A stretch of 63,819 nt of DNA from a virus (IMGVR_UViG_3300029624_000040:1-63819), one strand, 5' to 3'. Positions 2,455 through 63,249 are shown, counted from the first letter of the stretch. Translations and numbers: made by a program. Notes: generated from the sequence alone by a model not told the origin.

Positions 2455-2498
2455 CTTTTCTCTCCGTCGGCGCGTACCGCGACCAAAAAAAGTAAGGG

Positions 2499-2759
2499 TC
2501 AATGCGAGCAACAAAACGTGCCGCTCGCCTCTCTCGGGTCATCGCCCGAGCCGAATCGCTTGAACCATCGGTCGCCGCGCGGCTGGCCCATCGGCACCGT
2601 GGGGACCACCGGAAGATTCGCGGCACGGTTCATCACTGCGCCACATTGCTCGCAGGTAGGGACGGGTGGAACGACGCTCAGAAACACCGTGGGGACCGAC
2701 ACGACGCCGCCGCACTGTGAGCAGCGACCGACAACCCTTGTGTTCGTGAAATCTCTCAC
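2499..2759 (-). CDS. zinc-ribbon small protein
   Basis: CSQC...CEQC; GGAGAG RBS. Confidence 0.6.
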   Translation of the reverse strand: MRDFTNTRVVGRCSQCGGVVSVPTVFLSVVPPVPTCEQCGAVMNRAANLPVVPTVPMGQPRGDRWFKRFGSGDDPREASGTFCCSH

Positions 2760-2803
2760 TGCATCTCTCCTTGCGCGTACCGCGCCCGCAGTTAGGGGGT
2801 GGG

Positions 2804-2950
2804 TTATTCAGCCAGCCGGACCTTAAAGCCGGGCTTGATTTCGTTTTCGGGAAAGAACCTTCGAATCGCCTCCCTGCGGCCCTTCGCCTTGCAGTCGTCG
2901 ATTTGTTTCCACTGGCCGTTGACCAACTGAAAAAGAGCGAACGTCTTCAT
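2804..2950 (-). CDS. 48-aa hypothetical protein (MKTFALFQLVNGQWKQ...)
   Basis: Hand-translated; GGAGAG RBS; lies between repeat elements. Confidence 0.6.
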   Translation of the reverse strand: MKTFALFQLVNGQWKQIDDCKAKGRREAIRRFFPENEIKPGFKVRLAE

Positions 2951-3008
2951 TAGGCTCTCCGTCGGCGCGTACACTGAGCGCAGTTAAGGGGTGGGGTTAT
3001 TCACAATC

Positions 3009-3260
3009 TCAGCTATATCGACGTGGTGCCGTAGACTGCTTTTTCTTTACCGGCTGCGGAGCCACACTGTCGGCGTTGCTCCTCATGTTCGCCCGAAACT
3101 CGTTAAGGTTCTGGGAGTCGATGGGGATTCGCCACTGCGGCCTAGGGGTGTCGTCACTCGCGACGTTGATGGCAAAGAGCTTGCCGCTGTTGATCCAGTC
3201 ACGCACCTTATCGGCGCTGACCTTCATCAGTTTGGCGAACTCAGCCGTTGTCGCGTACAT
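3009..3260 (-). CDS. xis: excisionase-like helix-turn-helix protein
   Basis: TTAEFAKLMKVSADKVRDWINSGKL..WRIP MerR/HTH_17-type pattern, next to the integrase. Confidence 0.75.
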   Translation of the reverse strand: MYATTAEFAKLMKVSADKVRDWINSGKLFAINVASDDTPRPQWRIPIDSQNLNEFRANMRSNADSVAPQPVKKKQSTAPRRYS

Positions 3261-3418
3261 CCTCTCGCCGCTCCTCCGTGTGACTCATTGCGTCCGACAC
3301 GGGGAATTTAGCGGGGATTTCGAGCGTGTCACGGCCATTGTGCTCGCCGTAGCGAGACGCGCGCCGGTTATGCCGAACAGTGTTCAGCTATGCCGACCTA
3401 TGCCCGATATGGGCTTTT

Positions 3419-4519
3419 TTAGAGAACTTTCCACGGGCCGTTGAAAAGCCACTTTCGCACAGTTTCGGCGACCGCGATAAGCCGACCGTCATCAATTTCG
3501 TGCAGGTAGTGCGAGCTGATGGACTGGTCCGCTTGCCCCATGACGTGCAGCACAGCTGCATGGTCCTTGGAGCGGTCAGCAACAGTGCGGAACGTGTGCC
3601 GCAGAGAGTAGAAGCCTGCGTTCGCCCGAGTGATCCCGGCTGCGTGCCGAGCCTTCGTGAACTCTTGGGCGATGGCATCGTTCCCGCGTCCACGCACAAA
3701 CGGCTTGCCGAAGCGGGTGAGGAACAAACAGCCTTCTGGATTGGCCGTCGCGTCGACCTGGGCGAGTGTTTCCGGCCACAGGGAGCAACGCCGGTCTACG
3801 GCTGTTTTCGGGCGAGGATAATCGACCCACGAGCCATGCAGGTGCCGCCGCTCCAAATTCGATATGTCGGTCTGGCCCATCCCGCAGTTGATGGCAAGCA
3901 GAATCATCGCACGCAGTGTTGGCGACGAGTGTGCGTAGATTCGGGAAATCTCTTCTGGCTCGAACAACCGCTTCGGCTTCCGGTTCCGCTCCCGACGTAC
4001 ATTCGCTTTCGACGGCTTGCGGAAGTCCGGGCCGTAGTTCGGTTCGGACTCTAGCCAGCCCGCCGCCACCCCCCATCGAAAGACCGACCGAATCCGCTGC
4101 ACCTCGTTCCCGAGCCGCACCAGTCCGAACCGCTTTGACAGTTCCCCCATGAGCCGAGAGAACTCCGAGGCATGCAGCGTCGCGGGGTCACGCGATGCCC
4201 CGAACACCTTGACGATGAGTTTGCATGTCCCGTCGAGTTCGTCGACCGTCCGCTCTGCCAGTTCGCCGCGTCGATGCTTCTGCAACTTGGCTTCGTAGAA
4301 CTCGTCGCAGAGTTTGCCCAATGAGAACACGGCATTTGGGTCTGGCACCGGCACACCGGCCTTGAGATACGGTTCGGCGTGAAGGTACTCTCTCAGTGCG
4401 GCGTCTGGGTCTTCCCATCGCCCGAAGTAGTAAATACGCCCGCGGACCTTGCGTGCCCACTTCCCTGAGTTGTGGGCGTAAAGCGGAAATCCGGGGTAGG
4501 GTTTGCCGGGGCGTTCCAT
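3419..4519 (-). CDS. int: tyrosine recombinase (phage integrase)
   Basis: RPKT, FYSLRHTF, HVMGQ...SHY motifs; N-terminal arm-binding-like WARKVRGRIYYFG. Confidence 0.92.
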   Translation of the reverse strand: MERPGKPYPGFPLYAHNSGKWARKVRGRIYYFGRWEDPDAALREYLHAEPYLKAGVPVPDPNAVFSLGKLCDEFYEAKLQKHRRGELAERTVDELDGTCKLIVKVFGASRDPATLHASEFSRLMGELSKRFGLVRLGNEVQRIRSVFRWGVAAGWLESEPNYGPDFRKPSKANVRRERNRKPKRLFEPEEISRIYAHSSPTLRAMILLAINCGMGQTDISNLERRHLHGSWVDYPRPKTAVDRRCSLWPETLAQVDATANPEGCLFLTRFGKPFVRGRGNDAIAQEFTKARHAAGITRANAGFYSLRHTFRTVADRSKDHAAVLHVMGQADQSISSHYLHEIDDGRLIAVAETVRKWLFNGPWKVL

Positions 4520-6032: not shown

Positions 6033-6413
6033 TCAGGGGGAGCGGTCAACGGGAGTTTCGTCAGCCACTCGGGACAGGAAGGCGTCGACCGTCTTCTCGT
6101 ACTCATCGTGCCACGGGGCGCTCATTGCAACTTGGTCGAGAAATCCCTTTGACTCCCTCAGCAACTCCACCGCCTCGGCTAGTCGGGCGTTCCAATCACG
6201 ATGCCTTTGCTCATTCCTCATGTCTAGCTCGTTCCACTGCCGTAGTAGTGCAGCGTTTTCCACTTTCAACCGCTCTATCTCTGCGTCTCGCTCACGGCAG
6301 GCGGCGATAATTCGACGGGCACGCTCGGCAGGCATCGTGTTGATGCTACCGGGGTTCTCCTCCCAATGGGCGTACTTGCTGTAGTCGAGTTGCGTCAATT
6401 TACTCCCGCTCAT
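6033..6413 (-). CDS. hypothetical coiled-coil protein
   Basis: ORF in an overlapping operon. Confidence 0.65.
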   Translation of the reverse strand: MSGSKLTQLDYSKYAHWEENPGSINTMPAERARRIIAACRERDAEIERLKVENAALLRQWNELDMRNEQRHRDWNARLAEAVELLRESKGFLDQVAMSAPWHDEYEKTVDAFLSRVADETPVDRSP

Positions 6414-14157: not shown

Positions 14158-15252
14158 TCACTGGTTCAACTCCCTCATATCCCTGAGCAATTCCTGCTCA
14201 AGACTGAAGGTCTCCGGCGTTCGACTGCTCGAACCCGACTTGTTGTCTGCTCGTTTGCCACCCGGCTTGATGTCCGGCTTGGGCTTATCGAAAACGGCGT
14301 CCGGCTTCCCGAATTGCGCCGCGACTTCTTGCTTGGCGAAATGGTCAATCGTGGCTTGGTCGTTCAGCCCGGATTGCGTTAAACGCTGGACCGCGTTGAA
14401 GTACGCCGCCCCACGCTCCGAAAACACTGGGCGACCCGTTTCAGGGTCCATCACCGGCTGACCTTGGCCGTTCGTTTGATACATCCAGCCAGAGTTCTCC
14501 TGAAGAATCCGCTGGGCCTGATGCACCTGCGACTCTTGGGCGTGACGCTGCTGAAGTTCACCGAAAACCCGCTCGCGGACCTGCTCGGTAATCTGGTCAA
14601 CGTCCAGGAGCGACTTGGCCTGCTCTTTGATGAAAGACACAGGGTCGCGGCGGAATCGCTGGGAAGCGTCGTACCACTGGTGGAAGCCGTCTTTTACTTC
14701 TTTGGGCGTGCCGACCTGCCACTTGACGTTTCCGGCTTGGTCCTGCTTCACCGCACCTGTGGACTCGTCCCGCTCCATCCAGCCTTCCCACTGCGGGTCA
14801 TACGCAGCGCGAATCTCGCGGGCCGTTTCTTCCTGCTGCTGTTGGGTCGGCTGAGTTTGCTGGCCCCGGTTCTGAAGAAACTCGTTGAACTCCGACAGGT
14901 ACGGCTCAAGCTCTTTGTACCGCTTGGCGTACTCGTCCCGCTCACCGACCTTGCGAGACGCTTCAATCAGCCCCTTGGCCGCTTCTTCGTCCGACTGGTA
15001 CTTGCTGAGGTCGTAGCCGAACTGCTCGCGAGCAAAGTCCTTGAAGCCTTGGACGTTGAACGACGGCTTCTCCGACTCGGACGGCTGCTCAGCCTGCGGC
15101 TCTTCCGGTTGCTCTTGAGACTCACCGGACGGTTCAGGCTGCTCGGGAGCCGTCTGCTCCGGCTCGACCGTCTCGTTGGCCTGAGTCAGCGCGTCATCAA
15201 GCGTCGATTCGTCCTGAACCTCTTCCGGGGCTTCCTTCGTCGCTTCCGCCAT
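14158..15252 (-). CDS. capsid scaffolding protein
   Basis: Acidic E/Q/P-rich N-terminus, helical, directly upstream of the capsid gene. Confidence 0.7.
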   Translation of the reverse strand: MAEATKEAPEEVQDESTLDDALTQANETVEPEQTAPEQPEPSGESQEQPEEPQAEQPSESEKPSFNVQGFKDFAREQFGYDLSKYQSDEEAAKGLIEASRKVGERDEYAKRYKELEPYLSEFNEFLQNRGQQTQPTQQQQEETAREIRAAYDPQWEGWMERDESTGAVKQDQAGNVKWQVGTPKEVKDGFHQWYDASQRFRRDPVSFIKEQAKSLLDVDQITEQVRERVFGELQQRHAQESQVHQAQRILQENSGWMYQTNGQGQPVMDPETGRPVFSERGAAYFNAVQRLTQSGLNDQATIDHFAKQEVAAQFGKPDAVFDKPKPDIKPGGKRADNKSGSSSRTPETFSLEQELLRDMRELNQ

Positions 15253-15829: not shown

Positions 15830-16569
15830 CAGTCCTTCTCCGCAAAGACAGGGGACTCAGGCAGGTATCTTTTACGGGCTTCGTGCCAGTCAAGGCTTGG
15901 GAGCATTTGCGGCCCCCAATCGTACCCCGCCCTGCGCATCACCCGCTCCCAGAACTCAGCGATTTCGACGCCCGCATAATCAACGAACGGAAGCCACTGG
16001 ATGATCTTGAGGCTATCAAGGTCAAGAATGTTGCGGCTTTTATCTATCCAACGCAGCCGATTACTCCGAAGGGTGAAGTGCGATAGGTAAGACTCGACCG
16101 CCGTGACGTTTCGCTTGGGGAAATCGGTAACGTCGCATTCGTTACGGGGAGATTTGGGAGGGAATTTAGGGGTGGGCGCGACAACGTCTCCCGCCTGCTC
16201 GGTCGTTTCAGTGTAGAAGCTGCGACCGTTTGATTCTGGCTCATTCCACAGTGTCGCACCCAAACTGCTTGGATGCACCTCGACAGTGCTCCATTGCCTT
16301 GCAATCTCCCGTTCGATTTCCTTTTGCAGTGTGTCTGTCCCTATCGCATCGAAGTCGACCACTCGCGGCGGACGCTTCGCCATATGCCACTCATTCAGCT
16401 TGGCAACAAACTCAGCGTAGGACGGCGACGTGACCTCCACCTCGAACCTACCACGAAGGCCAACAAAGCTCATTTGACTGATGGCTCTGTCTGGCCGGAC
16501 GTAGACCACATGATCTAGCACGACCGCGACTGGCTCACCGTACTTCTTGCATTCAAGGACGGGGTTCAT
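15829..16569 (-). CDS. hypothetical protein
   Basis: ATG 16569 with GGAGG RBS. Confidence 0.65.
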   Translation of the reverse strand: MNPVLECKKYGEPVAVVLDHVVYVRPDRAISQMSFVGLRGRFEVEVTSPSYAEFVAKLNEWHMAKRPPRVVDFDAIGTDTLQKEIEREIARQWSTVEVHPSSLGATLWNEPESNGRSFYTETTEQAGDVVAPTPKFPPKSPRNECDVTDFPKRNVTAVESYLSHFTLRSNRLRWIDKSRNILDLDSLKIIQWLPFVDYAGVEIAEFWERVMRRAGYDWGPQMLPSLDWHEARKRYLPESPVFAEKD

Positions 16570-16657
16570 CAAACACCTCCATGCCGAGGGAAACACAGAA
16601 CACCCGATAACCTTAATGCCCAACCACGAACCGTCAACCTGAACAACCCCCAAGAAT

Positions 16658-16679
16658 CAACTGCGATTCAATCGCACCT
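16658..16679. promoter_or_regulatory. palindromic site TGCGATTnAATCGCA, copy 2
   Basis: caacTGCGATTcAATCGCAcct; reverse complement of copy 1 except the central base. Confidence 0.75.
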
Positions 16680-17260
16680 CAGCAAATCACCCAATCCACC
16701 CTATCTGGCCGCCCGGATAGGTATATCCACAGGGTCCACACGATGAGCACCCCCGAAATTGTACTTAGGCTTGGTGACATCGTTTGAGGATGGAAAATTG
16801 TGGGGTGGAATATATATAGGTATTTGGGGCCGTTTGGGGCTGGACCAGCCCGGGTTTCGTTTTCGCAAGCCGTTTGCTGCCAGCGGCTTACGTTGATTGA
16901 TTCGCCTCTGAATCGTTTGATGGACGTTTTGAACGTTTTAATCATAACCATGACGCATTATTCCCACCCTTAATCCATGCGTCTGATGCATTGCACGAAT
17001 CGGTGTGTCGTTGCCTCTTGGGGGGATGGGTGCTCGTGTCCTGTCTGCTGCTTCTCTCCTGTTTGTTGCTTGTTCTTCCGTTGTTCTGTCCCTGTTTGGT
17101 TGCTCTGGTGGTGAAGTTGCTGTCGCCTGGGCAATTTGTTGGCGGGTGGCTACTGTCCACTGTGGACGGTAGGATGTGGCCAATCCTTACGCCGGGTTGT
17201 TTCGACGTTTTTTTGAATCTCCCAGATTTGGTCCAACGGTATTGAGCCGATAGCCGTCTA
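16680..17260. other. non-coding divergent control region, candidate genome terminus/packaging site
   Basis: Lower GC, transcription diverges from here, 87-nt A-free tract 17027-17113. Confidence 0.5.
17150..17172. promoter_or_regulatory. palindromic site CTACTGTCCACtGTGGACgGTAG, parS-like candidate
   Basis: 22 of 23 nt identical to the palindrome inside the ParB-like gene. Confidence 0.75.
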
Positions 17261-17316
17261 TAGTGGTGTGGCCGGGTGGCACCGGCCGGAACGCTAAACA
17301 CAAACGGGAGACTTCA

Positions 17317-17511
17317 ATGACTGCTCGCATCATCAACGCCCTGCTGATGGTCGGATTCTTTCTCGCTGCTGCTGCGACGAGCGGGCCGGTGAGCCTGATG
17401 TTGCTCGGCTGCACGTTCGGGTGCATTTCGATTGGCGGGCTGTTTGTGCTCGGCGATTTGGTAGAGATGCGACCGGACGCCGTGATCGTCGCGCAGCGTG
17501 CAGGCGAATGA
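17317..17511 (+). CDS. small membrane protein with two hydrophobic segments
   Basis: AAACGGGAG RBS; hydrophobic. Confidence 0.65.
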   Translation: MTARIINALLMVGFFLAAAATSGPVSLMLLGCTFGCISIGGLFVLGDLVEMRPDAVIVAQRAGE

Positions 17512-17527
17512 GCCGAAACGGGCGACG

Positions 17528-17921
17528 GTATCGGCAACGTCTGTCGACTCGCTCGATTGGTGTCGGGCGAACCTATCAAACGTAAACGGGAGACTGAAGA
17601 TGTACGAAGTTGGCAGTACCGCATGGTTTCGCGGCGACGAAGTGACTATCACGTCCGAGCCTTATGAGATGGACGGTGCCGAATGGCAAAACGCCGTGTA
17701 TCCGGACGGTCGGAAAATCATTCTGTCGACTCCCAAGCAACGGGAGCGAAATGCAAAGCGATACCGCGCTGAATGGCAATCGCAACAGGACGGGTTTCGG
17801 CGTCTGCGTGAACGGTAGGACGTTTCCAGTTCTCGCGCCTCACTTGTTGGGGCGCGAGTATCGGCAACGTCGTCGAATCGCTCGATTGGCAATCGGGCGA
17901 ACATTCAAACGCAAACGGGAG
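17528..17921 (+). repeat. two copies of a ~65-nt structured intergenic element (17528-17592 and ~17858-17921)
   Basis: gtatcggcaacgtc(t)gtcgantcgctcgattgg..tcgggcgaac..tcaaacgyaaacgggag. Confidence 0.8.
17600..17818 (+). CDS. hypothetical protein
   Basis: AAACGGGAG RBS, ATG 17600. Confidence 0.7.
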   Translation: MYEVGSTAWFRGDEVTITSEPYEMDGAEWQNAVYPDGRKIILSTPKQRERNAKRYRAEWQSQQDGFRRLRER

Positions 17922-17928
17922 CGGTCGA

Positions 17929-18048
17929 ATGCTGACCATACTGGGGGACGTAGCTTGCGCCGTCGCGTGCGGCGCGGTGGCTTACTATCTCGCCTGGCTG
18001 TTTTCTGCCGATTGGCGGGGAATTGCCAAACGGGAACGCGGCGAGTAG
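17929..18048 (+). CDS. 39-aa single-helix membrane peptide (MLTILGDVACAVACGAVAYYLAWLF...)
   Basis: Hand-translated; AAACGGGAG RBS. Confidence 0.55.
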   Translation: MLTILGDVACAVACGAVAYYLAWLFSADWRGIAKRERGE

Positions 18049-18111
18049 CGTATTGTTTACTGTCGGACGTGGCTGTCCGGTGTTTTTCAAAACCTGAAAC
18101 GGGAGCGAAAG

Positions 18112-18756
18112 ATGCGACCTTTGTACGAACAGGCGCGGCCTCAGAAATGGTCCGAAGTGGTTGGGCAGGAAAAGGCCGTGCGGAAACTTGAAACACTCCG
18201 CAATCGCGGCCTCAGTGGCCGGGTCTATTGGCTCACCGGACAATCGGGGACGGGGAAAACGACAATCGCTCGCCTGATTGCGTCCGAAGTCGCTGGGGAA
18301 CTCGGCACCGAAGAGGTTGACGCAGCAGACCTCACAATCGGCCTGGTTCGCGAATGGGAGCGTTCGGCCCGCATGAAGCCCCTTGGAGCGGATGGGTGGT
18401 GCTTTATCGTGAATGAGGCTCACCGGCTCAGTTCGGCGGTCGTGTCGCGATTGCTTTCGACGTTTGAGCAGCCCACGACGCAGCGAAACGCGACGTGGGT
18501 TTTTACTACCACCACGGACGGGGAGCAGCTTTTCGAGGAACACGATGACGCCGGGCCGTTTGCCAGCCGAGCGGTCACGATTGCTCTCTCACGGCGGGGA
18601 CTGGCGGAACCGTTCGCCCAGCGTGCGCTTGAAGTAGCACGGGCGGAAGGCCTGGACGGTCAACCCTTGGACCGCTACGTGAAGCTCGCGAAAACGTGCC
18701 GGAACAATCTCCGTGATATGTTCCAGCGCATCGAAGCGGGGGAAATGGTAGCGTAG
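18112..18756 (+). CDS. clamp-loader-clade AAA+ ATPase (DnaX/RarA-like ATPase domain only)
   Basis: [16 protein letters not shown]; GQSGTGKTT; Walker B reads NEAH instead of DEAH; FASR. Confidence 0.85.
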
Positions 18757-18757
18757 A

Positions 18758-18818
18758 GCCGAAACGGGAGCGACGTTGCTCCCGTCCGTCGGGGATAGTC
18801 TCCCGGCGCTGATGAGGC
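18758..18818 (+). ncRNA. type II hammerhead ribozyme
   Basis: GCC GAAA CGGGAGC-gacgtt-GCTCCCG TC CGTCGGGG-atagtc-TCCCGGCG CTGATGA GGC; GUC cleavage after 18786. Confidence 0.9.
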
Positions 18819-18868
18819 AGACACCTCACCCCTGCCGGATGCGAACCGGCTTACAGGAGACGAGGAAG

Positions 18869-19276
18869 ATGTTTTACGACTTCACTATCGGTCCAGCAAT
18901 TGAGGGTGAGCCGGAACCCAAGCGGCCGTTCCTGCGGTTGCTTTCAGCGGCGGTCGACGAAACGGAGAGGCTTGGCGACGCTGGTTACAAAGAGCGGGGG
19001 CAGGTTAGGCACTGGCTCACGTCGTTCATCACAAGCCAAGGCCCCGGATTGCACGACATCAATTACAAGTTCTGGAACCGCATGCTTTGGTGGCTTGATG
19101 AATACCACGCGAAGACGGACCCCGACTACGATCGCGGCACTGTTAAGGTTGCCGCCGCTGAGGCAGGGTGGCCTTACGGGACTCACACAGCCAGTATCCC
19201 GCATGTGATGCACGACGCAAATGAGGCCCGATATAACCGCGACGCATTGTGGGACGCCCCGCGCTCGCTTGCCTGA
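18869..19276 (+). CDS. hypothetical protein lying between the two hammerheads
   Basis: ATG 18869 with AGGAG/GAGG RBS. Confidence 0.7.
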   Translation: MFYDFTIGPAIEGEPEPKRPFLRLLSAAVDETERLGDAGYKERGQVRHWLTSFITSQGPGLHDINYKFWNRMLWWLDEYHAKTDPDYDRGTVKVAAAEAGWPYGTHTASIPHVMHDANEARYNRDALWDAPRSLA

Positions 19277-19357
19277 TTTCTATCGTCTCCCCGTCCCGGT
19301 CGCCTTAGACCCCGCGTCGCAACCGGGCGAGGCGGCCGGGCGGGTGGGGACGACTCA

Positions 19358-19413
19358 GCCGAAACGGGCTACGGCCCGTCGTCGTGCGGTGGTTCGCACG
19401 GCCTGATGATGGC
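19358..19413 (+). ncRNA. type II hammerhead ribozyme
   Basis: GCC GAAA CGGGC-tacg-GCCCG TC GTCGTGCG-gtggtt-CGCACGGC CTGATGA t GGC; cleavage after 19380. Confidence 0.88.
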
Positions 19414-19444
19414 AGCCACTATCTATGGGAAACGGGAGCGAAGA

Positions 19445-19681
19445 ATGGCGAATGATTTACAGGACTCCGTCAACCGACTGAGGCACGCCGGGCAGTGTGC
19501 CTTTGCGCACTGCGTCATTGAAGACGCGAAATGCCTGATCCGTATCCTGTTTCCGGACCGGCACAAAGGCCCTTCCGTTCGCGATACGATCCGTGGCGCA
19601 GCCGCCGAAATTCGCCGCGCCCAGCAATACATCGCCGACGCAGATCGACACTATGGGATCAACGAGAGCGATCAATGCTAG
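19445..19681 (+). CDS. hypothetical protein
   Basis: AAACGGGAG RBS. Confidence 0.65.
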   Translation: MANDLQDSVNRLRHAGQCAFAHCVIEDAKCLIRILFPDRHKGPSVRDTIRGAAAEIRRAQQYIADADRHYGINESDQC

Positions 19682-19989
19682 AACACAAAGGCTACGCCGG
19701 ACGCATCACTATCGACCACGACACCGGCTCACTCGTCGGCGAAGTGCTCGATATTCGGGATGTCGTCACGTTCGAAGGTCAGACCGCGCGGGCAGCCGAA
19801 CAGGCTTTTCGTGACTCGGTCGACGACTATCTGGAACTCTGCGAACAGCGGGGCGAGCAGCCGGACAAGCCGTACTCGGGTAAGCTGCTGGTCCGACTCG
19901 GGCCGGAACTGCACGCCAAGGTCGCTGCCAAGGCGAAGGGGAGCGGCCTGAGCATCAATCAATACATCTGTGAGAGACTGGCAGACTGA
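19675..19989 (+). CDS. hicB: HicB-family antitoxin (orphan)
   Basis: HKGYAGRITID..GEVLDIRDVVTFEG..AFRDSVDDYLE..PDKPYSGKLLVRL.PELH. Confidence 0.92.
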   Translation: MLEHKGYAGRITIDHDTGSLVGEVLDIRDVVTFEGQTARAAEQAFRDSVDDYLELCEQRGEQPDKPYSGKLLVRLGPELHAKVAAKAKGSGLSINQYICERLAD

Positions 19990-19999
19990 AAACACCGAA

Positions 20000-20100
20000 C
20001 CGTGCCGCCGTGTTACTCCCGTTTCCGGCGGCGCGGCACCCACCGACTGACCCCCGACTGCCAATCGAGGGGAGTAGCTCGCAACTTGCGGTGGGTGCGC
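20000..20100 (+). ncRNA. structured intergenic RNA whose loop is complementary to the operon RBS motif
   Basis: 11-bp stem 20000-20010/20026-20036 with CTCCCGTTTC in the loop; second stem GCACCCACCG/CGGTGGGTGC. Confidence 0.55.
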
Positions 20101-20140
20101 TTTCAACTGGTCGAAACGGGAGCGCAAATGGGAGCGACGA

Positions 20141-20311
20141 ATGACTGACCGCGAGCGAATTCAGGACGTGCGGGAACGGCTATCGGGCGGATGTCCTGAA
20201 GAGGATTTCGAACCCAAAGTCACGTCGTGGGAATTGCTAGACGTTCTCGATGTGCTGGCATCGCTCGATGAACGACTGGGAAAACTCGAAACGGGAGCGA
20301 AAGATGAGTGA
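20141..20311 (+). CDS. 56-aa hypothetical protein (MTDRERIQDVRERL...)
   Basis: Hand-translated; RBS motif; overlaps the recombinase start. Confidence 0.6.
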   Translation: MTDRERIQDVRERLSGGCPEEDFEPKVTSWELLDVLDVLASLDERLGKLETGAKDE

Positions 20312-21290
20312 AATCGCCTGGGGCTACGCCCGCGTATCATCCGACCGACAAGCGAACGAAGGCGTCGGCATTCAAATGTGGTGCGACAAGATTGTCCGCT
20401 ACGCAGAACAGCACGACCTCGACTTGGGTAATCTCCGCACCCAGCACGTCGCTGGTATCACGCTCGAAATTCCCGAACGATTGGGTATCGAGTCGGAGTC
20501 CGCCTACAAAACCAACTTCCGCGACAGGCGAGTTGGGGGGCATCTCTGGGACTACGCCGCACCGGACGACCATGTGATTATCGCTGGCGTTGACCGGGGG
20601 TTTCGCAGCCAACGGGATTGCCTGAATACCGTGCTCGACTGGATTAACGAGCGGCTGGTCCGTGTCCACATTCTTGACATGGCCGGGCATGACTTGGACC
20701 TCGTCTCCCCGATGGGCCAAATGCTGCTTTCGATTCTCTCCGCAATGGGGGAGTGGGAGTCGAAGATACGGGCTGAGCGGACGAAACGGGCCTTTGCTCA
20801 AGCCAAATTGCAGAACCGACGCTGCCACGACTTCGCCCCTATCGGCTTCCGGTTCCGAGGGGAAGGGAAGCACCGCCGATTGGTCCTGTGCCCCGAGGAA
20901 ATGGCAATCATCAAACAGGTTTGCAGGTGGAAAGAGGAGGAAGGCTTGTCGGAAGTCAAACTCTACAAGCGACTGAACGATAACGGCATCGTCCCGCCTG
21001 AGCCGGAGAACATGGGGGAGTGGTCACGCGGGGACGCCTCGAAGTACACCTACCACCGCATCAAGCAAATGCTCCGTATCGGTCCTCGATTAGTGAAGCT
21101 GGAAGAGGCCCACGGGGACATTAACAAAGAAGCCGTGGCGGAACTGGAAGAATTCACGCTGCGATTACACGAGACTGCCGAGCAGGTCGCCAAGCATCGC
21201 TCGGAAAAAGCCAAACGGGAGCGGCGGCGTGCGGAGATTCGCAAGCTCCAACAGCAAGGCCTGCCGAGCCACAAGCCGAAGGCGTCCTAA
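20304..21290 (+). CDS. serine recombinase (resolvase domain plus recombinase-like extension)
   Basis: WGYARVSSDRQ; DRGFR; SPMGQMLLSILSAMGEWE..IRAERT; APIGF. Confidence 0.9.
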   Translation: MSEIAWGYARVSSDRQANEGVGIQMWCDKIVRYAEQHDLDLGNLRTQHVAGITLEIPERLGIESESAYKTNFRDRRVGGHLWDYAAPDDHVIIAGVDRGFRSQRDCLNTVLDWINERLVRVHILDMAGHDLDLVSPMGQMLLSILSAMGEWESKIRAERTKRAFAQAKLQNRRCHDFAPIGFRFRGEGKHRRLVLCPEEMAIIKQVCRWKEEEGLSEVKLYKRLNDNGIVPPEPENMGEWSRGDASKYTYHRIKQMLRIGPRLVKLEEAHGDINKEAVAELEEFTLRLHETAEQVAKHRSEKAKRERRRAEIRKLQQQGLPSHKPKAS

Positions 21291-24200
21291 TCGTCCCGTG
21301 CGGCCTGCTGCTTCCGTCTCTGCATCCCGGCGTACAGTTGCATCATCAACTGTTCTTCCGGGGTGAGCACGGCATCGTCGAAGGCGTACAGACGCTCGAA
21401 TGAGCCGAGGTTGGGGGACGCTTCGGCCAATTGCTCAATTACATCGCCCACCGCGTAGTCCCTTGCCCGCTCCAGCCCACCGTAGGGGTCGGTGATGCGG
21501 GCGGGGACAGCCCATCGGCCCACCTTGTCCAACAGGTCTTTCCGGTCATCGAAGAAGAACGTCCGGGCCATACTTTGAGCACGAGCCGTCGGCAGGCTTT
21601 GAAGCAGGGCGTTGATTTGGTCGTTGTCGGTCGGGAAGTCCGGCACCTCGGACAATGGTCGCCCAGTGAACGGGTCACGCTGACTCGCCAAGGTGTAGGG
21701 GAGTTTGACGAACGGGGACGAACTCGCCACCGCCTTCTCGAACGTCCGCTGTAGCGCCGCGTCAATCGTCGCACCCGACGCAATCTTGTTGAAGACTTCC
21801 TCGTGGGGGAGTCCGAAGCCGGTCAGAAATCGGTCTTCCTTGCCGATGAGCGGGACGCCTTCCAGGGGGACGGCAAGTGTCTCGCCGATGTAGTCAGGGA
21901 CGAAGCCTTCGCCCTCACGCATTGTCTCCGTGGCGCGGAGCACCTGGGCCAACGCACCGCCCGGCTTCTGAAGCAACGTGCCAGCGATTAAGGGGGCCAC
22001 CTTCTTCTGAAACGACCAGAACGGAATCGCCCGCTTGGCAAAGGCCCGCTCGAATTTGGTTACGTCCCCATAATCGAAGTGCAACGACTCGACCATCTCT
22101 GCCGCGACTTCCGCAGAGTATCCCTGCCGTCGCATCGCTGCAAACAACGGAACGCGGTTGACGAACTCAACCCTTTCATTAAGCCGTGACCCTCGCTCAA
22201 CAGCACGCTGGGTTTGCTCGCCAAGAAACCGACCGCCCGGCGCGTTGTCGTTCAGGAATGCCGCCAGCGTGGTGCGTGGGCCTTCTGCCAAGTCCTGTGT
22301 GGCTTGCCGGTTGATGTCGGTCGGGTCGAGCGTGCGGTACGGAACGTCCAAGTTGTCAACCCCAGTCACCGGGGCATCCATGAACGCTTTGCCGCTCCCG
22401 AGCACGCCGTAGTCCAACATCTCCTCAATGTACTGCGATTCAATCGCAGTTGCGTCGCCCCGTAAATGACGGCCTGCATCCACGACGGCCTTGCCGTAGG
22501 CTGTCAGGTCGTCCGCTGTCCGAAACGCACCGCTGGTCAGGTTCAGGAACGAACCGCCCATCCCGTTTCTCAAGAAGAAACTGGGGAAGGCAGGCACCAT
22601 CCCCTTCTTGGTGCCGGGAATCTTGGCGACCGGAATCGTGACGGCCGCCTTAAACGTGTTGACGATGGTGTCGAGTACGTCCCCGACCTGCTTCCGCCAC
22701 ACTTCCTGAGTGGGGTCGAACGACTTCATCAGGCTGTTGGCCGCGTCGACCGCTCGGCTATCAACAAGCAGGTTGCCGAGTTCTTCTGCGCTGCGCCCTG
22801 TCGTCTTCGCAAAGTATTCGAGGGCTTGGTCGGGGTTCATCCCCACGTCCTGAAACGCCTCGGACAGAACCGAATAACCGACCGGAACCTCACCGCCTGT
22901 GTAGACCTTCGACATATCTCCGAAGAGCTTATGAATCGACTCGGCGCTGGCATCCAGAATTGCCATTCGCTTCATGTACTGAGCGAACGACTGAGCCGGG
23001 CCGGTGTAATCGACCGGACGCTTGGCCGCACTGCGTAGGTCTTCCGCGTGAGAGAGTTTGGCCTTGGCGATTTCTTCGGGGGTGCGTTGAATCTCACCCT
23101 GCCGGATCAGACTCGCCTGCATCGGGTCGGAAACGTCATAGGCGGGGTCCAGATACTCGTCGTACTGCTTCAGGATATGGTCAACCCCACCCTTTCCACG
23201 GGTGGCCGAGTCTTCCGCCATCTCCCGCATGACCTCGACCGGCACTCTTGCCCGAGCCTTGGAGCGGGAGCCGTAGCCGCGAGCGTTGACCATCTTCGAC
23301 TCGTACACGTCACGAGCCTTGTTGTAGACGGGCTTGGCGAAGCGGGGCATGTGGGCAAAGTCGTCCGCCTCTTCAATCATCCCCAGCGACACACCTTTAT
23401 TGAGCACTGACTGGAACTTGTTGCCCGCTGCGAGTTTGATGTCGTCAGCTAGTTTCAAAATGTCGGTCGCAACCTGCTCACCCTGCTGCGGCATCGCCAG
23501 CCCAGCCCGTCCAAAGGCGTCCCCCAAATCTCCCTGCGTCTCTCCCGTGTGCCGAACGATACGGTCGAAGATGTCCTCGACAACCGCCTCCTCGTCCGTG
23601 TTGCGGATGGTCTGTCCGTAGGAATCCTCGAAGGCTTTGTAAACGTCGTTGTACTGCTTGTTGACCGTTCGCGCCGCCTGCCGAGCGGCGAACATCGCGG
23701 CCGGTTCGTTGCCGTAGATGGTCTCCCCGAGCTTCTGCCCAATGGGCTTCATCACGTTCTTGACGGACGAATCGAACAGCATCCGCCCAAAACGGAATGG
23801 GGAACTGACCATCTCCGAACCCGGCAGGTCACTTGTTCCCTTCAGGTAGTCCCCGGCCACCTTGGTCGCATCCGCTGCCTTGTCTCCCGTCCCAAACGAC
23901 GCGAGTTGCTTGCCGGAGAACGGAATCTCCACATTGACCAGTGACCGCTGCCCCTGCCGTAAGGCGTCTACGAAGCCGTCTGCGGGCTTCAGTGCCTTCA
24001 AGGCATCATCAGCCATGCCAGCCTTACTGAGAGCCTGAGCGGCTTTTGTGGACCCCTTGGCGGCTGCACCCAACGCTGTCGTACCGCCGAGCGTAAGGTA
24101 CGATAGGGGGTCTCCGGCCACCTCGGCGGCGAATGCTCCTAGGTCTCGGAACTCCCAGGCGTTCGGGTCGTTCGGCATCCCCATCGCAGCCAACAGGTCG

Positions 24201-29912: not shown

Positions 29913-32152
29913 TGGCCCGCCCCCGCAATATCGAGTTGGTAGAGCCGGACCCGTTCCCCGTTCGTGGTGCAGACAACCTCAGCCTGAATGTGCCGGTTGC
30001 CGTCGGCGTCAATCTCTTTCGCGTCTCCCATGTTGTGCTGCGCGTATCCGTTCGCTTTCGTCGGGTCGACAATCAAATCGGAATCATCGTCCGACGCCGT
30101 GAATCCCATGCCGTTGTCAAAGTCGATTTCCTGGTCAACCGGAGTGTTCGACCTGTCCTCATACAGCCGCATCGCCAGACGGCTCGTGACACTTCCCGGT
30201 TCATAGGTCAGGTGCAGCCCACGGTCCTGATACTCGTCCGTTACCGTCCACCGATAGATGGCCGAACGCCACGACCAGTTGATGCCCCCAATTTGATACA
30301 CGCTCGTGGTGTCTGGCTTGGTCGTCCACGGGAATCGCACCTTGAGCGTCGTCCCGTCCAGTGCGGTGATGAGTCTCTGCTGGCCTTTCCCCGTACCGGA
30401 AACGATTTCCACTACCTTCCCGACCACCGTGGAGGCGAACGACGCACTCGAATCCGCAATCCACGTCAGACCGGAAGACGTGGCCGTGCCTCGTGCCGTT
30501 CCGTTTCCCGAATGGCCGTCCCAATCGCCCTGTTCGCCTGCGAGAATCGTCCGCGCTCGGCTGCCAAGAAAGACGGTCGCTCGCCCGGACAGGTCGCCAT
30601 ACGCACTCGATGCCACCGGGACGGGGTACTCGTACAAATCCCACTGCCGGAGCCGGTAGCGGTAGACCAAAGCATGCCGAGGGTACCTCCCCCCAAGGCT
30701 CACGAAGAACAGGACGCTTTCGTTCTCGCGGTCGTGGGTTGCGTGGAAATACTTTCGCCACTGCCAGTTGATTTTGAACGGGCTGCCTGAGCGGGGGTTG
30801 AACAGCGTTCGAATCGGGGCACTCACCGGAATCAGGTCGTTCGCCACCATTGAGTAGATACCCTGTCGGTCCAAGGCATACACCCGGTCGTCTGCAATCA
30901 GGCAGCAGCGTTGATTCACCGCCCCCCGTTGCGGCCCGAGTGACGTGAACCCATCGGTTGCAGGGTCAGCGTCGTAGCTGATTCGCCACACCCGGTTCTC
31001 GCTGAACGTGTACGCCCAGCGATTGTGAGCGATGATGGCGGTAATCTCACCACCCTCCGGCGTCTCCGATAACGTCACGGCATTCAGCGGCGACCACGCT
31101 TCCGGGTAGACGAGTTCCGAATACCGGAGTTGCCTTCTCTGAGAAGCATCAGGGGCAATGCGGTAGCGGACGTAGGCCGAGGTGGAGCCGCCGTAGACTG
31201 TGGAAAGCGTAATCGTTTGCGTTGATGTGTTGACAGTGAGGATGCTGTAGCCGGTTGTGTCGCCTTCGACGTAGAAGTTCCTTCCCGCCAACTCGTCAGT
31301 CCAGTCCGTCCCGATTCCGGTCACGGTCCCCGAGCCGTTCGTCACCTTGGCCGACCCGGTTTCGTAAATCGGATAGCCCGCCCCAAGCATCCGCCCCGTA
31401 TTGTGCGTCCAGAACGGAACGTCATCAGGCGGCTCGGTGAAGCGGTCGCTCACCAAGTCTGTGTTCTGCGTATCGACCAGCGGAACCGCAGTGCCCAAAG
31501 CGTCATCGTTCTTAGTGGAACTGAATGTGGTACCCGACAGATTCGTCGTCTCCACATCCACATACGCCACCCGGGCTTCACCGTTCTTAGTCCGGAGAAT
31601 CTGCCGTTTGACCACTCGGCTATCAGACGGGGCTTGGACACTGGCGTAGTTAATCTGGTCAGCACCCTGCCGCCACGTCCCTCCTGCTGTGTATTCAGCC
31701 ACCCCGGCGACCGGGTTGCCGTCAAGGTCATAAAGCTCGAATGTATCGGTCGTCTTGTTTTTGACGATGCGTGCGCCGTTTGCCGAGTAATTCCCCGCCA
31801 CCCCTTCGATAAACACGTACTCGTCGTTGGAAAGTCCGTGTCCGGTAGAAGTCACGACGATGGGAGTCGCGTTGGTCGCTGCCGTAATCGAGCCGTCATT
31901 GGTGCTAGGCTGCAACTTGGCTGAGACGGGTGTGACGTTCGACGGATTCCCGTCCCGGTCAAGCCATCGCTGGTAGGCGTAGAGCGTGCCGACAATATCC
32001 CCGCCCGTAGTGAACGTGGCGGTAACGGTCGTGGTGGGAGCAGGCACCCCGGCGTCTTCAAACGCGGATTGCAGGCCGTCCCACGCCAGCGCGTCACTGA
32101 ATCCGTCAGTGGCGTAGAGCGTTCCATCAGGTTCGCGGGAGAAGTATTTCAA
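29909..32152 (-). CDS. podovirus tail nozzle/stabilisation protein with inserted beta domains
   Basis: LRYSEL.YPEAW, RGAVNQR, LDRQGIY propeller-like segments; ITAATNATPIVVTSTGHGL insert. Confidence 0.75.
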   Translation of the reverse strand: MKYFSREPDGTLYATDGFSDALAWDGLQSAFEDAGVPAPTTTVTATFTTGGDIVGTLYAYQRWLDRDGNPSNVTPVSAKLQPSTNDGSITAATNATPIVVTSTGHGLSNDEYVFIEGVAGNYSANGARIVKNKTTDTFELYDLDGNPVAGVAEYTAGGTWRQGADQINYASVQAPSDSRVVKRQILRTKNGEARVAYVDVETTNLSGTTFSSTKNDDALGTAVPLVDTQNTDLVSDRFTEPPDDVPFWTHNTGRMLGAGYPIYETGSAKVTNGSGTVTGIGTDWTDELAGRNFYVEGDTTGYSILTVNTSTQTITLSTVYGGSTSAYVRYRIAPDASQRRQLRYSELVYPEAWSPLNAVTLSETPEGGEITAIIAHNRWAYTFSENRVWRISYDADPATDGFTSLGPQRGAVNQRCCLIADDRVYALDRQGIYSMVANDLIPVSAPIRTLFNPRSGSPFKINWQWRKYFHATHDRENESVLFFVSLGGRYPRHALVYRYRLRQWDLYEYPVPVASSAYGDLSGRATVFLGSRARTILAGEQGDWDGHSGNGTARGTATSSGLTWIADSSASFASTVVGKVVEIVSGTGKGQQRLITALDGTTLKVRFPWTTKPDTTSVYQIGGINWSWRSAIYRWTVTDEYQDRGLHLTYEPGSVTSRLAMRLYEDRSNTPVDQEIDFDNGMGFTASDDDSDLIVDPTKANGYAQHNMGDAKEIDADGNRHIQAEVVCTTNGERVRLYQLDIAGAGQ

Positions 32153-33840
32153 TTCGTCCTCTCCGGCACCATGCCTGCGTTATAGCCCAGCATAGCAAGT
32201 AACGGTAACGTGTTGCTCGGCACGTCTTGGTAGGCCGGTGCGATGTAGGGGGAATAGAGTTGGCTCTGTGGGTCAAACAGTGCCACTTCCTCCAAAATGG
32301 GTCGGGGCGTCCGAACGGTCGGTAACTGTAGCTCCTTGGCAAATTGTGCCGCCGGGTGCGTCCCAACCATTGCGCGCGAATGGAGCATTGTCTCCGCAAG
32401 GTCGACAACCTCTTGGTTGCTCGCACCGGATGCACGGGCTTTGCGGATTGCGTCAGCCACCGCCTCCTTAGTGACGCCGCGCTGTGCGGCACTGACGGAA
32501 GCAAGAGCAGCCTGCAACGGGTCGCCGCCTCCGACAGGTGCATTTCGTGCCGCGTCCGCCAAAGTCGTGTCGCTCTTAACCCTCTTTTTAATTTGTCGTG
32601 GAGCGGTGCGGAGACTGGCTGGCAAACGGTAGTCTGCGTTCTGTGGCGTGAGCCGAATGGAATCAACAATTGCGCTGTCGACTTCACTCGCAGGCACACT
32701 CTCAGGCACCACGTCAAACGAGTGCATCCGGCTCATCTTGACCGAATCGTACCCGTGGTCTTTAAGGATTCGCGTCGCGTCGTCTGCGGACTTTGCACGG
32801 TAGGCCCCCGATTTACCCCAGTAGGGGAACTCCGTCGCACCCTCGCCGCCACGGCGGGCCGCGTCTGCTGCGTCACTCAGTTTGTAAATGGCGTCCTCAA
32901 TCAACTCGCGTTTTGACCCCACCGGCCCAGTTGTCGTTTGGGCAAACGCCCCCATCTCGCCAGCAATCGACGCCCACTCGTCTTCAATCTTCTTAACCTC
33001 GGACGGAGACAGGTCCGCATACTTGCCCACCCGACGAAACACTTTGTCTGTGGTGTAATCCGAGTAGGGCACCTTGGCGGACATTTCCTCCACCTGCCGA
33101 ATCAGTGAGTCCGGTATCTGCCATTTCTCGATCTGGTCCTGTGTCTTTTCCGGCACATACTTCAGCAGGGTCTTATACAGTTCCGGCTCTGTAATCTCGG
33201 ACGGGTCGACCAGCTTGCCGACCTGCTCTGCAAACTCCACCCCACTTAAGGGCGTCATGTCACTGCTCCCGAAAGTAAACTCAAACGGTTTGCGAGAGTC
33301 CCCGAAGCCCCGCATGACTTGGCCAGACCGTCCTTGCACGTACTCACTCGCCAGCCGAGGCTCGGGCGTCATATACGTCCCCCGTCCGTACAAACCGTCA
33401 TCCGTCGCGGCGCCTGCAAAGTCGGGGCTGAGGTCTCGCAACGTGATGTCGGGATTACCCGTGCCGTGAAACAACCGCATCGGGTCGCCCGCACTGTCGG
33501 TCAGCTTCGTCAGTCCGGCAATCTCCTCCGGCATCGCGCCCGCCGCACGCATGGCGTCCGACGCCGCGTTGGCCTTATTCGCCAGTCCAGCCGCCTTGGC
33601 CGTCTTCCCGATAGCCCCCGCACCAATCAGGTTGAGCGGGTCGAGCAACATTTCCGCCAGCGGAGCGGCAAAGTCGTGGGCGTCCCACCGGCTTGTATCG
33701 TTCTCCCACCCGTAAGTGGAGAGCAAATCGCTACCGCTAACTCGCTCGCCCGGACGGCCAGCCAGAGCACCCCGCGTGTACGCTCCCGGTGTATCGAGTG
33801 CGTAGCCCACGCCTTCCAAGATGTCGAGTAGCGGAATCAC
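32149..33840 (-). CDS. virion-associated ADP-ribosyltransferase-like (ART-PolyVal-type) protein
   Basis: PMRLFHGT, YGRGTYMT, ASEY, GYDSV, EEVALFDP. Confidence 0.75.
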   Translation of the reverse strand: MIPLLDILEGVGYALDTPGAYTRGALAGRPGERVSGSDLLSTYGWENDTSRWDAHDFAAPLAEMLLDPLNLIGAGAIGKTAKAAGLANKANAASDAMRAAGAMPEEIAGLTKLTDSAGDPMRLFHGTGNPDITLRDLSPDFAGAATDDGLYGRGTYMTPEPRLASEYVQGRSGQVMRGFGDSRKPFEFTFGSSDMTPLSGVEFAEQVGKLVDPSEITEPELYKTLLKYVPEKTQDQIEKWQIPDSLIRQVEEMSAKVPYSDYTTDKVFRRVGKYADLSPSEVKKIEDEWASIAGEMGAFAQTTTGPVGSKRELIEDAIYKLSDAADAARRGGEGATEFPYWGKSGAYRAKSADDATRILKDHGYDSVKMSRMHSFDVVPESVPASEVDSAIVDSIRLTPQNADYRLPASLRTAPRQIKKRVKSDTTLADAARNAPVGGGDPLQAALASVSAAQRGVTKEAVADAIRKARASGASNQEVVDLAETMLHSRAMVGTHPAAQFAKELQLPTVRTPRPILEEVALFDPQSQLYSPYIAPAYQDVPSNTLPLLAMLGYNAGMVPERTN

Positions 33841-34809: not shown

Positions 34810-34986
34810 TTAATTCTCGAATTGAACTTCGCGGAATCCCTTGCGGTTTTGTAAGACGCCCGCCTCGCTCGAATCGCAATTCACCGCTCGGGGACTGACC
34901 CCTTCCGGTACGTCGTGCGCGTCAACCTCGGTGCTGATGCCGGGGAACTGGCGGATTTCAACATTGCGTCGGTTTGTCTTATCCAT
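34810..34986 (-). CDS. 58-aa protein resembling the N-terminus of podovirus nozzle proteins
   Basis: Hand-translated MDKTNRRNVEIRQFPGISTEVDAHDVPEGVSPRAVNCDSSEAGVLQNRKGF; TGATG-coupled to the adaptor gene. Confidence 0.65.
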   Translation of the reverse strand: MDKTNRRNVEIRQFPGISTEVDAHDVPEGVSPRAVNCDSSEAGVLQNRKGFREVQFEN

Positions 34987-62850: not shown

Positions 62851-63249
62851 TCATTTTTCCGCCCACACATGAAACCGCTGCGGAAGGCCCCTTAATAAGC
62901 TCGGGTTGCACGCGCAAACATACCTCGCAATTTCGACCGCCCACGCGAAAGGAACGCCCTGCATGTGCGGAAGAGCCTCGCTGATATCTCGCATAAAACG
63001 TTCCCAGCCCCGGTCGCTTAATGCTGTGGCGCCAGACAGTGACCGTCGCCGCTGCGACTTCCACCAGCGGCACTCTTTTTCGTATGCCCTCTTGAATGCC
63101 GCGGCGGTAATATCCCGTTTCACTTCTTCCTGGAACTGCTTTCGGGCACTGGAAACCTTGACCCGTTCGCAATAGAGCCTTAGTTCATTGTCGCGTAACC
63201 ACCTGGCGACTTGCTCATCGGTTGCGTAGATTTCGGGTTTCTTGCTCAC
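62851..63249 (-). CDS. hypothetical protein
   Basis: GTGA-coupled to csrA. Confidence 0.65.
   Translation of the reverse strand: MSKKPEIYATDEQVARWLRDNELRLYCERVKVSSARKQFQEEVKRDITAAAFKRAYEKECRWWKSQRRRSLSGATALSDRGWERFMRDISEALPHMQGVPFAWAVEIARYVCACNPSLLRGLPQRFHVWAEK

Follow-up and report, generated by a model that had tools for sequence, protein, structure and literature searches.

The genome of a phage that probably infects a planctomycete (IMGVR_UViG_3300029624_000040) carries, in its only plus-strand operon, nine copies of the motif AAACGGGAG, each placed as a ribosome-binding site (RBS) in front of a start codon, together with a tenth, reverse copy that is predicted to lie on the loop of a stable hairpin. 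The window, that is, the whole stretch of DNA that we analyzed, is 63,819 bases long and corresponds to the entire virus record, rated 96% complete. Nearly all of its long open reading frames (ORFs) are on the minus strand, and positions 17317-21290 form the single plus-strand block, an operon of non-structural genes. The nine plus-strand copies most plausibly represent a start-associated sequence (SAS), a type of over-conserved translation-initiation cassette known from actinophages and found here in a new phage lineage.

Nine copies of one initiation cassette

To characterize the motif, we counted it over the whole genome and found 10 exact matches, compared with 0.75 expected from dinucleotide shuffles (standard deviation 0.83, largest 4), with none of 100 shuffles reaching 10 copies; the enrichment is not due to chance. 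All matches fall inside the operon (17302-21221), nine on the plus strand, at exactly the coordinates given in an earlier note on this DNA, and the tenth on the minus strand at 20016-20024 (Table 1). The earlier note, which had proposed such a count against a background model, had also noticed no copy in the rest of the genome, and this is true for exact copies, the window being the whole virus record. When up to one mismatch is allowed, 32 matches are obtained against 19.1 expected, and the 22 additional ones are scattered and near chance.

The same note had placed seven copies upstream of starts and had taken the motif for an operon-wide RBS element. The placement stands and the number is larger, as a start codon (ATG, GTG or TTG) follows 5-7 nt 3′ of the motif in all nine plus-strand copies (seven ATG, one TTG and one GTG), which puts each of them at the ribosome-binding position. 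Seven copies serve credible genes, whose starts lie at 17317, 17600, 17929, 18112, 19445 and 20304, plus 20141 via a tandem variant of the motif. The GTG at 21229 opens a 45-amino-acid (aa) out-of-frame ORF of doubtful reality. Two genes lack the motif, hicB and gene 5, the latter using a Shine-Dalgarno sequence of its own, AGGAGACGAGGAAG, 3′ of a hammerhead ribozyme. The mini-ORF behind copy 7, MGATND (20128-20148, plus strand), ends 5 nt beyond the ATG of gene 8, thus overlapping the start of that gene, and may encode a leader peptide or serve translational coupling. In addition, a one-mismatch copy, CAACGGGAGCGAA-ATG, is found within gene 2 (17738-17753, plus strand), with its ATG in a different frame; this could represent a tenth cassette or a chance occurrence.

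The cassette has the consensus GAAACGGGAGCGAAAG-ATG, of which GGGAG is the Shine-Dalgarno core. Conservation extends beyond this core: GAAACGGGAGCG is common to five copies, and the copies at 18097 and 20289 are alike in 24 of the 26 nt leading to the ATG. The other 76 predicted starts of the genome are preceded by a mix of GGAG, AAGGAG, AGGAGG and GGGAG, without AAAC or any common flank, and GGAGG and AGGAG occur 66 and 57 times on the minus strand vs. once and twice in the operon. The initiation regions that carry the motif are weakly folded (-2.6 to -12.8 kcal/mol, z -1.1 to +1.0). We inspected the 3′ end of 16S rRNA in two Planctomycetota metagenome-assembled genomes (MAGs) from the probable host clade, which hold orthologous loci of the operon's ATPase gene, and found it canonical (GGATCACCTCCTTTCT; CACCTCCTTTCT). 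Contiguous pairing to this end covers GGGAG only; given that the 16S ends are canonical, pairing with the 16S tail does not account for the flanks AAAC (5′) and CGAAAG (3′).

A comparable element was previously described in the Cluster K mycobacteriophages. The Cluster K SAS is a 13-bp asymmetric sequence, GGGATAGGAGCCC, that occurs in 11-19 copies; these stand 3-7 bp ahead of starts that are mostly ATG, are confined to the non-structural half of the genome and share one orientation, and their outer positions are unable to pair with 16S rRNA (PMC3203893). Inverted repeats, termed ESAS, lie 5′ of about half of these sites (PMC3203893, Pope et al. 2011), four Cluster K phages, Adephagia, Angelica and CrimD among them, have a single reverse site, and the authors allowed for a reader of host or phage origin, “either RNA or protein” (PMC3203893). 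An analogous SAS/ESAS motif was found in the Cluster EF Microbacterium phages (PMC7302621, Jacobs-Sera et al. 2020). The earlier note had been aware of no described system combining these features; this is not upheld, since both clusters share the anatomy. In the accessible parts of the literature that we searched, including PMC3203893, PMC7302621, PMC4351075, PMC9262239 and PMC13596312, we found no paper that assigns a function to the SAS and none that places a reverse SAS on a hairpin loop.

The likeness to the Cluster K SAS is extensive. In both cases, an over-conserved asymmetric block surrounds a Shine-Dalgarno core 3-7 nt before starts, in one orientation, in front of non-structural genes and rarely elsewhere, with flanks beyond 16S pairing and inverted-repeat elements, here palindrome-like, 5′ of some copies; in both, moreover, a single reverse copy away from any gene start sits on a hairpin loop. 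By contrast, the sequences are unrelated (AAACGGGAG vs. GGGATAGGAGCCC), as are the phages and their host phyla (here Planctomycetota); the nine copies are concentrated in a 4-kb operon instead of 11-19 copies spread over half a genome; and the present phage has ribozymes interleaved with its genes as well as a csrA gene. Occurrence of the same motif in related phages, another trait of the SAS, was not seen here, as the cassettes of the relatives differ and no close relative was found. The Cluster EF motif resembles the cassette in its ten 13-bp copies at the ribosome-binding position and its weaker upstream element, and differs from it in sequence.

Longer shared blocks of about 60 nt, each containing a palindrome-like 17-mer, lie 5′ of genes 2 and 3. 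Counting a third, inverted occurrence, the 17-mer is found 5′ of three of the nine motif copies; the ESAS of Cluster K is longer and differently arranged, and the sequence of the 17-mer loosely resembles an operator or an ESAS-like element.

Cassettes of distant relatives

Close relatives of the phage were not recovered, as blastn of positions 17000-21400 matched none of 50,697 phage records and scans with single proteins (the ATPase, a 1049-aa neighbor and the recombinase) found no relative. The exact 19-nt cassette has one match in IMG/VR, a single copy in locus L001 (0.09 expected by chance), and a comparison of the operon DNA with 401 Planctomycetota genomes matched 12 of them, in pieces of hicB, the hammerhead and the ATPase gene only. 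Using a homologue profile of the ATPase, we obtained 30 orthologous loci: 8 from viruses, 17 from metagenomes and 5 from MAGs, with one MAG locus duplicating a metagenomic contig.

Several of these loci have a cassette of their own. In L005 it reads CCCTAGCC-N1-5-GGAG and is present in 7 copies; in L076, (A/C)CC(G/C)TACCAGGAGTTGAAACGATG stands ahead of 11 starts; L004 has three copies of AACC(C)TACAAAGGA, and L071 three to four copies of ACTTTAAT(T)TGAAGGGG; L077 and L064 are weaker cases. The cassettes are on the ATPase strand and precede genes with mutually unrelated coding sequences. Because four distant relatives (L005, L076, L004 and L071) carry different cassettes in the same operon, the cassette is a trait of the phage lineage, with a sequence that is private to each phage and apparently evolves together with some phage-specific feature.

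We also performed a start-word screen of the 30 loci, searching for upstream 20-mers alike in at least 14 of 20 positions before ATG, with CTG as a control. ATPase-strand clusters were found in six loci (L004, L007, L010, L065, L071 and L076), and the CTG control clustered as well, in loci with coding repeats (L003, L007, L065, L068, L076 and L144). Two other word screens, too noisy in G+C-rich DNA, were disregarded, and cases were judged by eye. On this basis, L065 and L007 were dropped as their genes are themselves duplicated, the 13 copies of CGGCGGGAA in L007 being a 69-nt coding repeat, and L010 was dropped as it looks like coding noise. Owing to its variable spacing, L005 escaped the 20-mer screen; it was picked up instead by a word search.

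A reverse copy on a hairpin loop and what it may do

The tenth copy of the motif lies in a predicted hairpin (20000-20036) with a folding energy of -26.1 kcal/mol (z = -4.37), none of 200 shuffles being equally stable, in agreement with the earlier note, which had described its stem and a loop showing the exact complement of the motif. The loop, predicted to be open, carries CTCCCGTTTC (20016-20025), complementary to GAAACGGGAG. This is the sole anti-motif word of at least 10 nt on the plus strand of the genome, and apart from it the operon has just one anti-motif element, formed by the stem III 3′ strand in hammerhead 1. For one reverse 9-mer to fall within the 4-kb operon, the chance is about 0.02, as estimated post hoc from the shuffle rate. 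The loop is perfectly complementary over 10 nt to five copies and over 9 nt to the remainder, and its predicted duplexes with the 11 motif-type start regions range from -14.5 to -19.9 kcal/mol, compared with a mean of -8.5 for the 76 others. Its nearest partners are the tandem copies at 20114 and 20126, 90-110 nt 3′ (-18.0 and -15.7 kcal/mol), with a second hairpin (20037-20097) in between. No U-tract follows the hairpin 20000-20036 (CACCCACCGACUG does), which is not among the eight terminator-like sites of a scan demanding a 3-8-nt loop; its sequence is thus unlike that of an intrinsic terminator. A pyrimidine-rich tract is also present at 17035-17105 (plus strand), in the 660-nt divergent intergenic region 5′ of gene 1; its element CTCCTGTTT (17056-17064) could pair with the motif through one G.U, is not significant alone, and would be relevant only if the operon transcript started 5′ of the tract.

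We found parallels for the reverse copy in L005 and in the Cluster K phages. Over the whole 53.7-kb record of L005, the 8-mer of its cassette occurs six times forward and once in reverse, all inside 6.2 kb, a pattern like that of the window. The reverse copy is a complete reverse cassette, CTCCCCGGCTAGGGAG, located at 14806-14821, 8 nt past a stop codon; it adjoins a terminator-like hairpin and folds partly on itself. In the Cluster K phage Anaya (L252, JF704106), we counted 16 forward SAS and one reverse SAS at up to two mismatches, and the reverse site lies within a long hairpin at 34850-34900, in its apical loop of 10 nt (CCUCCUAUCC). Near the right genome end, gp96 and gp97 are separated by a non-coding gap of 385 nt, which holds this hairpin; its direction of transcription is that of the SAS genes. 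The gap is conserved across 182 Mycobacterium phage records, of which we aligned 12, selected for identity spread, and the reverse site of CrimD was checked by sequence. The hairpin is kept in 11 of the 12 phages, with a C/U-rich loop of 9-12 nt, the loop being deleted in Yuna. Over its 18 pairs, 90.2% of the cells are paired and six pairs are altered on both sides; the covariation score is 0.255, compared with 0.187 in shuffles (0 of 500 reach the observed value) and at most 0.10 with slid pairing, the structure having come from one of the aligned sequences, which is somewhat favorable to the score. Judging from these sequences and predicted folds, the hairpin that bears the reverse copy is real, and L005 and Cluster K provide unexpected counterparts of it.

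Based on these data, we give an even chance to a model in which the SAS cassette and its reverse loop copy act together, mostly in cis. The cassette would provide the genes that it precedes with one uniform, open RBS and with one common handle for a regulator. The loop would pair within the same RNA with the tandem copies at 20114 and 20126, and this pairing would gate the translation of gene 8 and of the coupled recombinase, its reach to other copies in trans being possible and secondary. The two hammerheads of the operon would process the transcript around gene 5, with no part in loop release. We infer the mechanism past what position, spacing, complementarity and predicted folding provide, the cis-gating step entirely so.

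Several observations weigh against this model. No anti-motif above chance was found in the fetched contig parts of L076, L004, L071, L077, L064 and L065, nor a reverse SAS in the 50.0 of 56.7 kb (88%) examined of the Cluster EF phage AnnaSerena, which has 10 forward SAS. Duplexes of -16.6 kcal/mol or better are also predicted between the loop and three unrelated initiation regions. The region of the hairpin, gene 8 and the recombinase has no homologue in the collections searched, and the reverse copy with its adjacent inverted palindrome may be an inverted duplication of an intergenic cassette. In Cluster K, the exact anti-SAS is present in only 6 of the 12 loops, and Amgine has the loop CUUCCCUUC while its SAS stays GGGATAGGAGCCC (18 forward, 0 reverse); exact complementarity is therefore not required there, since the loop differs between subgroups and the SAS is constant. 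As far as these alignments indicate, loop and SAS do not co-vary, which lends no support to strict pairing.

The same complementarity could be put to a different use, namely a loop RNA that acts in trans as an anti-RBS, pairs with most or all motif copies and shuts down the operon's translation in one step, while the ribozymes supply processed RNAs; the earlier note had envisaged a released or cis-acting loop that silences many sites at once. The perfect 9-10-nt matches, the energies of the duplexes and the open loop would all suit such a circuit, as would the single reverse SAS on the conserved Cluster K hairpin loop and the one reverse cassette in L005. Pairing of C-rich loops with Shine-Dalgarno sites is moreover an established small RNA mechanism: the C-rich hairpin loops of Staphylococcus aureus RNAIII and RsaE/RoxS pair with Shine-Dalgarno regions, and they resemble the present loop in being pyrimidine-rich, apical and complementary to GGGA/GGAG in several initiation regions. 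Unlike them, the hairpin studied here lies inside the very operon transcript to be regulated. Pairing within the same RNA, with copies 90-110 nt away, should outcompete targets in trans. The proposed release of the loop by ribozymes fails, because both ribozymes are at least 600 nt 5′ of the hairpin and none flanks it, leaving nothing to free the loop; from their positions, the hammerheads isolate gene 5 and not the loop. Together with the absence of an anti-motif from most of the relatives' fetched parts and from the examined part of AnnaSerena, and with the lack of loop/SAS covariation in Cluster K, this makes the trans circuit improbable. The loop was also considered as a trans substrate of hammerhead 1 and rejected, as the stem I pairing fails on inspection.

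A protein reader is another candidate, and a doubtful one on present evidence. Here, the motif would be the target set of a CsrA-type protein, of phage or host origin, that binds the GGA of GGGAG and represses or times translation of the operon, with the flanks tuning its binding. The phage does encode CsrA, as the earlier note had pointed out (Table 1), from a gene whose own initiation region is AAGGGAGCAAGG-ATG, and GGA stands at the Shine-Dalgarno position in every copy, as it does in repression by CsrA/RsmA at GGA-containing Shine-Dalgarno sites. The tandem pair at 20114 and 20126, 12 nt apart, would suit a CsrA dimer. CsrA was likewise found in G001, the motif-rich record of L005, which was searched whole (60.1 bits), and five of five host-clade Planctomycetota MAGs (G007-G011) have 5-11 CsrA-family matches each, an unusually large set of paralogues. 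CsrA as a reader of the motif is reasonable and unproven, because every cassette has GGA in the way that any Shine-Dalgarno sequence does, so that GGA or GGAG does not discriminate. Against it, G002, the record of L004, is rated complete and has a cassette, yet no CsrA was found in it, and the protein is present in one of the six relatives' records searched. Furthermore, in contrast to known CsrA/RsmA sites, the motif is not predicted in hairpin loops, and outside GGA the relatives' cassettes diverge, something that a single conserved family of proteins does not account for on its own. Among 2517 phage genomes, csrA genes were reported in 30, about 1%, without a known role (PMC7366521; PMC9144972).

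It is also conceivable, if somewhat unlikely, that there is no dedicated regulator, and that a “best” RBS was copied and then spread or homogenized by recombination as small genes joined the operon. The hairpin would then be something else: a DNA site for the recombinase or a repressor, a stabilizing or terminating stem-loop, or an inverted cassette duplicate. The blocks common to the upstream regions of genes 2 and 3 and the near-identity of the copies at 18097 and 20289 are in line with copying, as is the repetition of entire hammerhead-plus-leader cassettes in the relative L075. The hairpin region holds both the palindrome, operator-like in its three occurrences, and the motif, in inverted order, and the hairpin itself, an inverted repeat of 11 bp around a 15-bp spacer, is situated some 270 bp 5′ of the recombinase gene. 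However, the same anatomy with different sequences recurs in at least four relatives and two actinophage clusters, and the SAS is retained across many Cluster K genomes, which argues for selection on the cassette as such. In addition, a terminating role is at odds with the missing U-tract, and the compensatory changes in Cluster K fit an RNA or a cruciform rather than a protein half-site. Taken together, we rank local action in cis as the most likely reading, with CsrA targeting second, which may hold in addition, then a recombination-spread cassette with a DNA or structural hairpin, and global silencing in trans as the least likely.

These results extend the SAS to an unrelated lineage of phages of a different bacterial phylum, in which the cassette differs from phage to phage, and the recurrence of its anatomy there indicates that SAS-type control is a general solution rather than a peculiarity of actinophages. 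The placement of a reverse copy on a hairpin loop, here and, with the support of covariation, in Cluster K, also yields a testable mechanism. More speculatively, and with rather low probability, the SAS and its reverse loop copy could form a recurrent, convergent phage module in which the “anti-SAS” loop RNA, part of the same transcription unit, pairs with the shared cassette and thereby gates or silences a block of early or non-structural genes; if so, the module, with the window, L005 and the Cluster K1 phages as instances, would give the mycobacteriophage SAS a mechanism. In the present phage, one small operon ending in a recombinase gene brings together several RNA-level layers, namely ribozyme processing, a uniform RBS cassette and a phage CsrA.

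Ribozymes, genes and probable host

The operon contains two type II hammerhead ribozymes (RF02276), both well above the Rfam gathering score of 37, with CUGAUGA and GAAA cores visible in both alignments (Table 1). In agreement with the earlier note, motif copy 5 (18762) supplies two elements of hammerhead 1, the GAAAC core and the stem III 5′ strand, the latter pairing with GCUCCC (18778-18783). Several hammerheads flanking single genes near integrases are known in prophages (PMC3088659, Perreault et al. 2011), and the present pair is alike in that two type II ribozymes flank one small gene near an integrase-type gene on a polycistronic phage transcript; it differs in that the stem III 5′ strand of one ribozyme is a copy of the RBS cassette. 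Among the orthologous loci, L075 has two type II hammerheads 5′ of the ATPase gene, each with a repeated leader and a GAAAGG RBS (2480-3430), and a strong sigma-70-like promoter (TTGACA..TATACT) ahead of these two near-identical hammerhead cassettes, while L072 has a twister-P5 ribozyme 3′ of the ATPase gene (6148-6219); no self-cleaving ribozymes were found in the 8 viral loci. A 31-nt stretch after gene 1 (17498-17528) shares 81% identity with the 5′ portion of hammerhead 2 (AGCCGAAACGGGC...), lacks the remainder of the ribozyme and may represent the relic of a hammerhead. We considered and rejected a third hammerhead at 17509-17528, as the similarity is confined to the 5′ third and no Rfam match was obtained even at E <= 5.

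Table 1. Coordinates of the cassette copies, RNA elements and genes discussed in the text
Feature	Position	Strand	Remarks
Motif copy 1	17302-17310	+	ATG of gene 1 6 nt 3′
Motif copy 2	17584-17592	+	ATG of gene 2 7 nt 3′
Motif copy 3	17913-17921	+	ATG of gene 3 7 nt 3′
Motif copy 4	18097-18105	+	ATG of ATPase gene 6 nt 3′
Motif copy 5	18762-18770	+	Inside hammerhead 1; TTG 18776 5 nt 3′, in frame with gene 5
Motif copy 6	19430-19438	+	ATG of gene 6 6 nt 3′
Motif copy 7	20114-20122	+	ATG 20128 of six-codon mini-ORF 5 nt 3′
Motif variant AAATGGGAG	20126-20134	+	Tandem with copy 7; ATG of gene 8 at 20141
Motif copy 8	20289-20297	+	Within end of gene 8; recombinase ATG 6 nt 3′
Motif copy 9	21213-21221	+	Inside recombinase gene; GTG 21229 7 nt 3′
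Palindrome-like 17-mer, variant of CTCGATTGGCAATCGGG	17553-17569	+	5′ of motif copy 2
Palindrome CTCGATTGGCAATCGGG	17881-17897	+	5′ of motif copy 3
Inverted copy of the 17881-17897 palindrome	20053-20069	+	16/17; within second hairpin (20037-20097)
Hairpin	20000-20036	+	11-bp stem with one G.U pair, 15-nt loop; starts 10 nt past hicB stop
Hammerhead 1, type II	18757-18826	+	56.7 bits; putative cut after C18786
Hammerhead 2, type II	19357-19421	+	53.2 bits; putative cut after C19380
Gene 1	17317-17511	+	64 aa, ATG
Gene 2	17600-17818	+	72 aa, ATG
Gene 3	17929-18048	+	39 aa, ATG
Clamp-loader-like AAA ATPase	18112-18756	+	214 aa, ATG
Gene 5	18869-19276	+	135 aa, no family; between the two hammerheads
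Gene 6	19445-19681	+	78 aa, ATG
HicB	19675-19989	+	Start overlaps end of gene 6; without motif
Gene 8	20141 (start)	+	56 aa, ATG
Serine recombinase	20304-21290	+	328 aa, ATG
Phage CsrA	63246-63404	-	52 aa, PF02599, 58.7 bits vs. cut-off 27, E = 4.1e-17

Profile searches gave family names for three operon genes only (the clamp-loader-like AAA ATPase, HicB and the serine recombinase), with no family match for the other six small genes. The serine recombinase has no homologue besides itself at E <= 1e-20 among 5.8 billion clustered proteins and stands, by sequence, as an orphan in its very large family. A promoter scan found no promoter-like sites within 16500-21500, and a terminator-like hairpin with a canonical U-tract lies at 18061-18082, just 5′ of motif copy 4. 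The named ATPase homologues come from Thermoguttaceae and Pirellulales MAGs. As the orthologous loci from reference genomes are all from Planctomycetota, the phage probably has a planctomycete host.

Elsewhere, the genome encodes a major head protein, a helicase, exonucleases, a methyltransferase and a tyrosine integrase. A 563-aa protein (32149-33840, minus strand) has an ART-PolyVal ADP-ribosyltransferase domain (E = 1.9e-7), and about ten tandem 18-nt repeats (..CCCATCCGGCTTCGATG..) are found at 2105-2290, within a minus-strand ORF (1864-2514). Finally, the minus-strand gene pairs 2454/2950, 51408/53014 and 51906/53322 have near-identical upstream regions, e.g., GTACGCGCCGACGGAGAG, and thus represent small-scale repeats of initiation regions beyond the operon.

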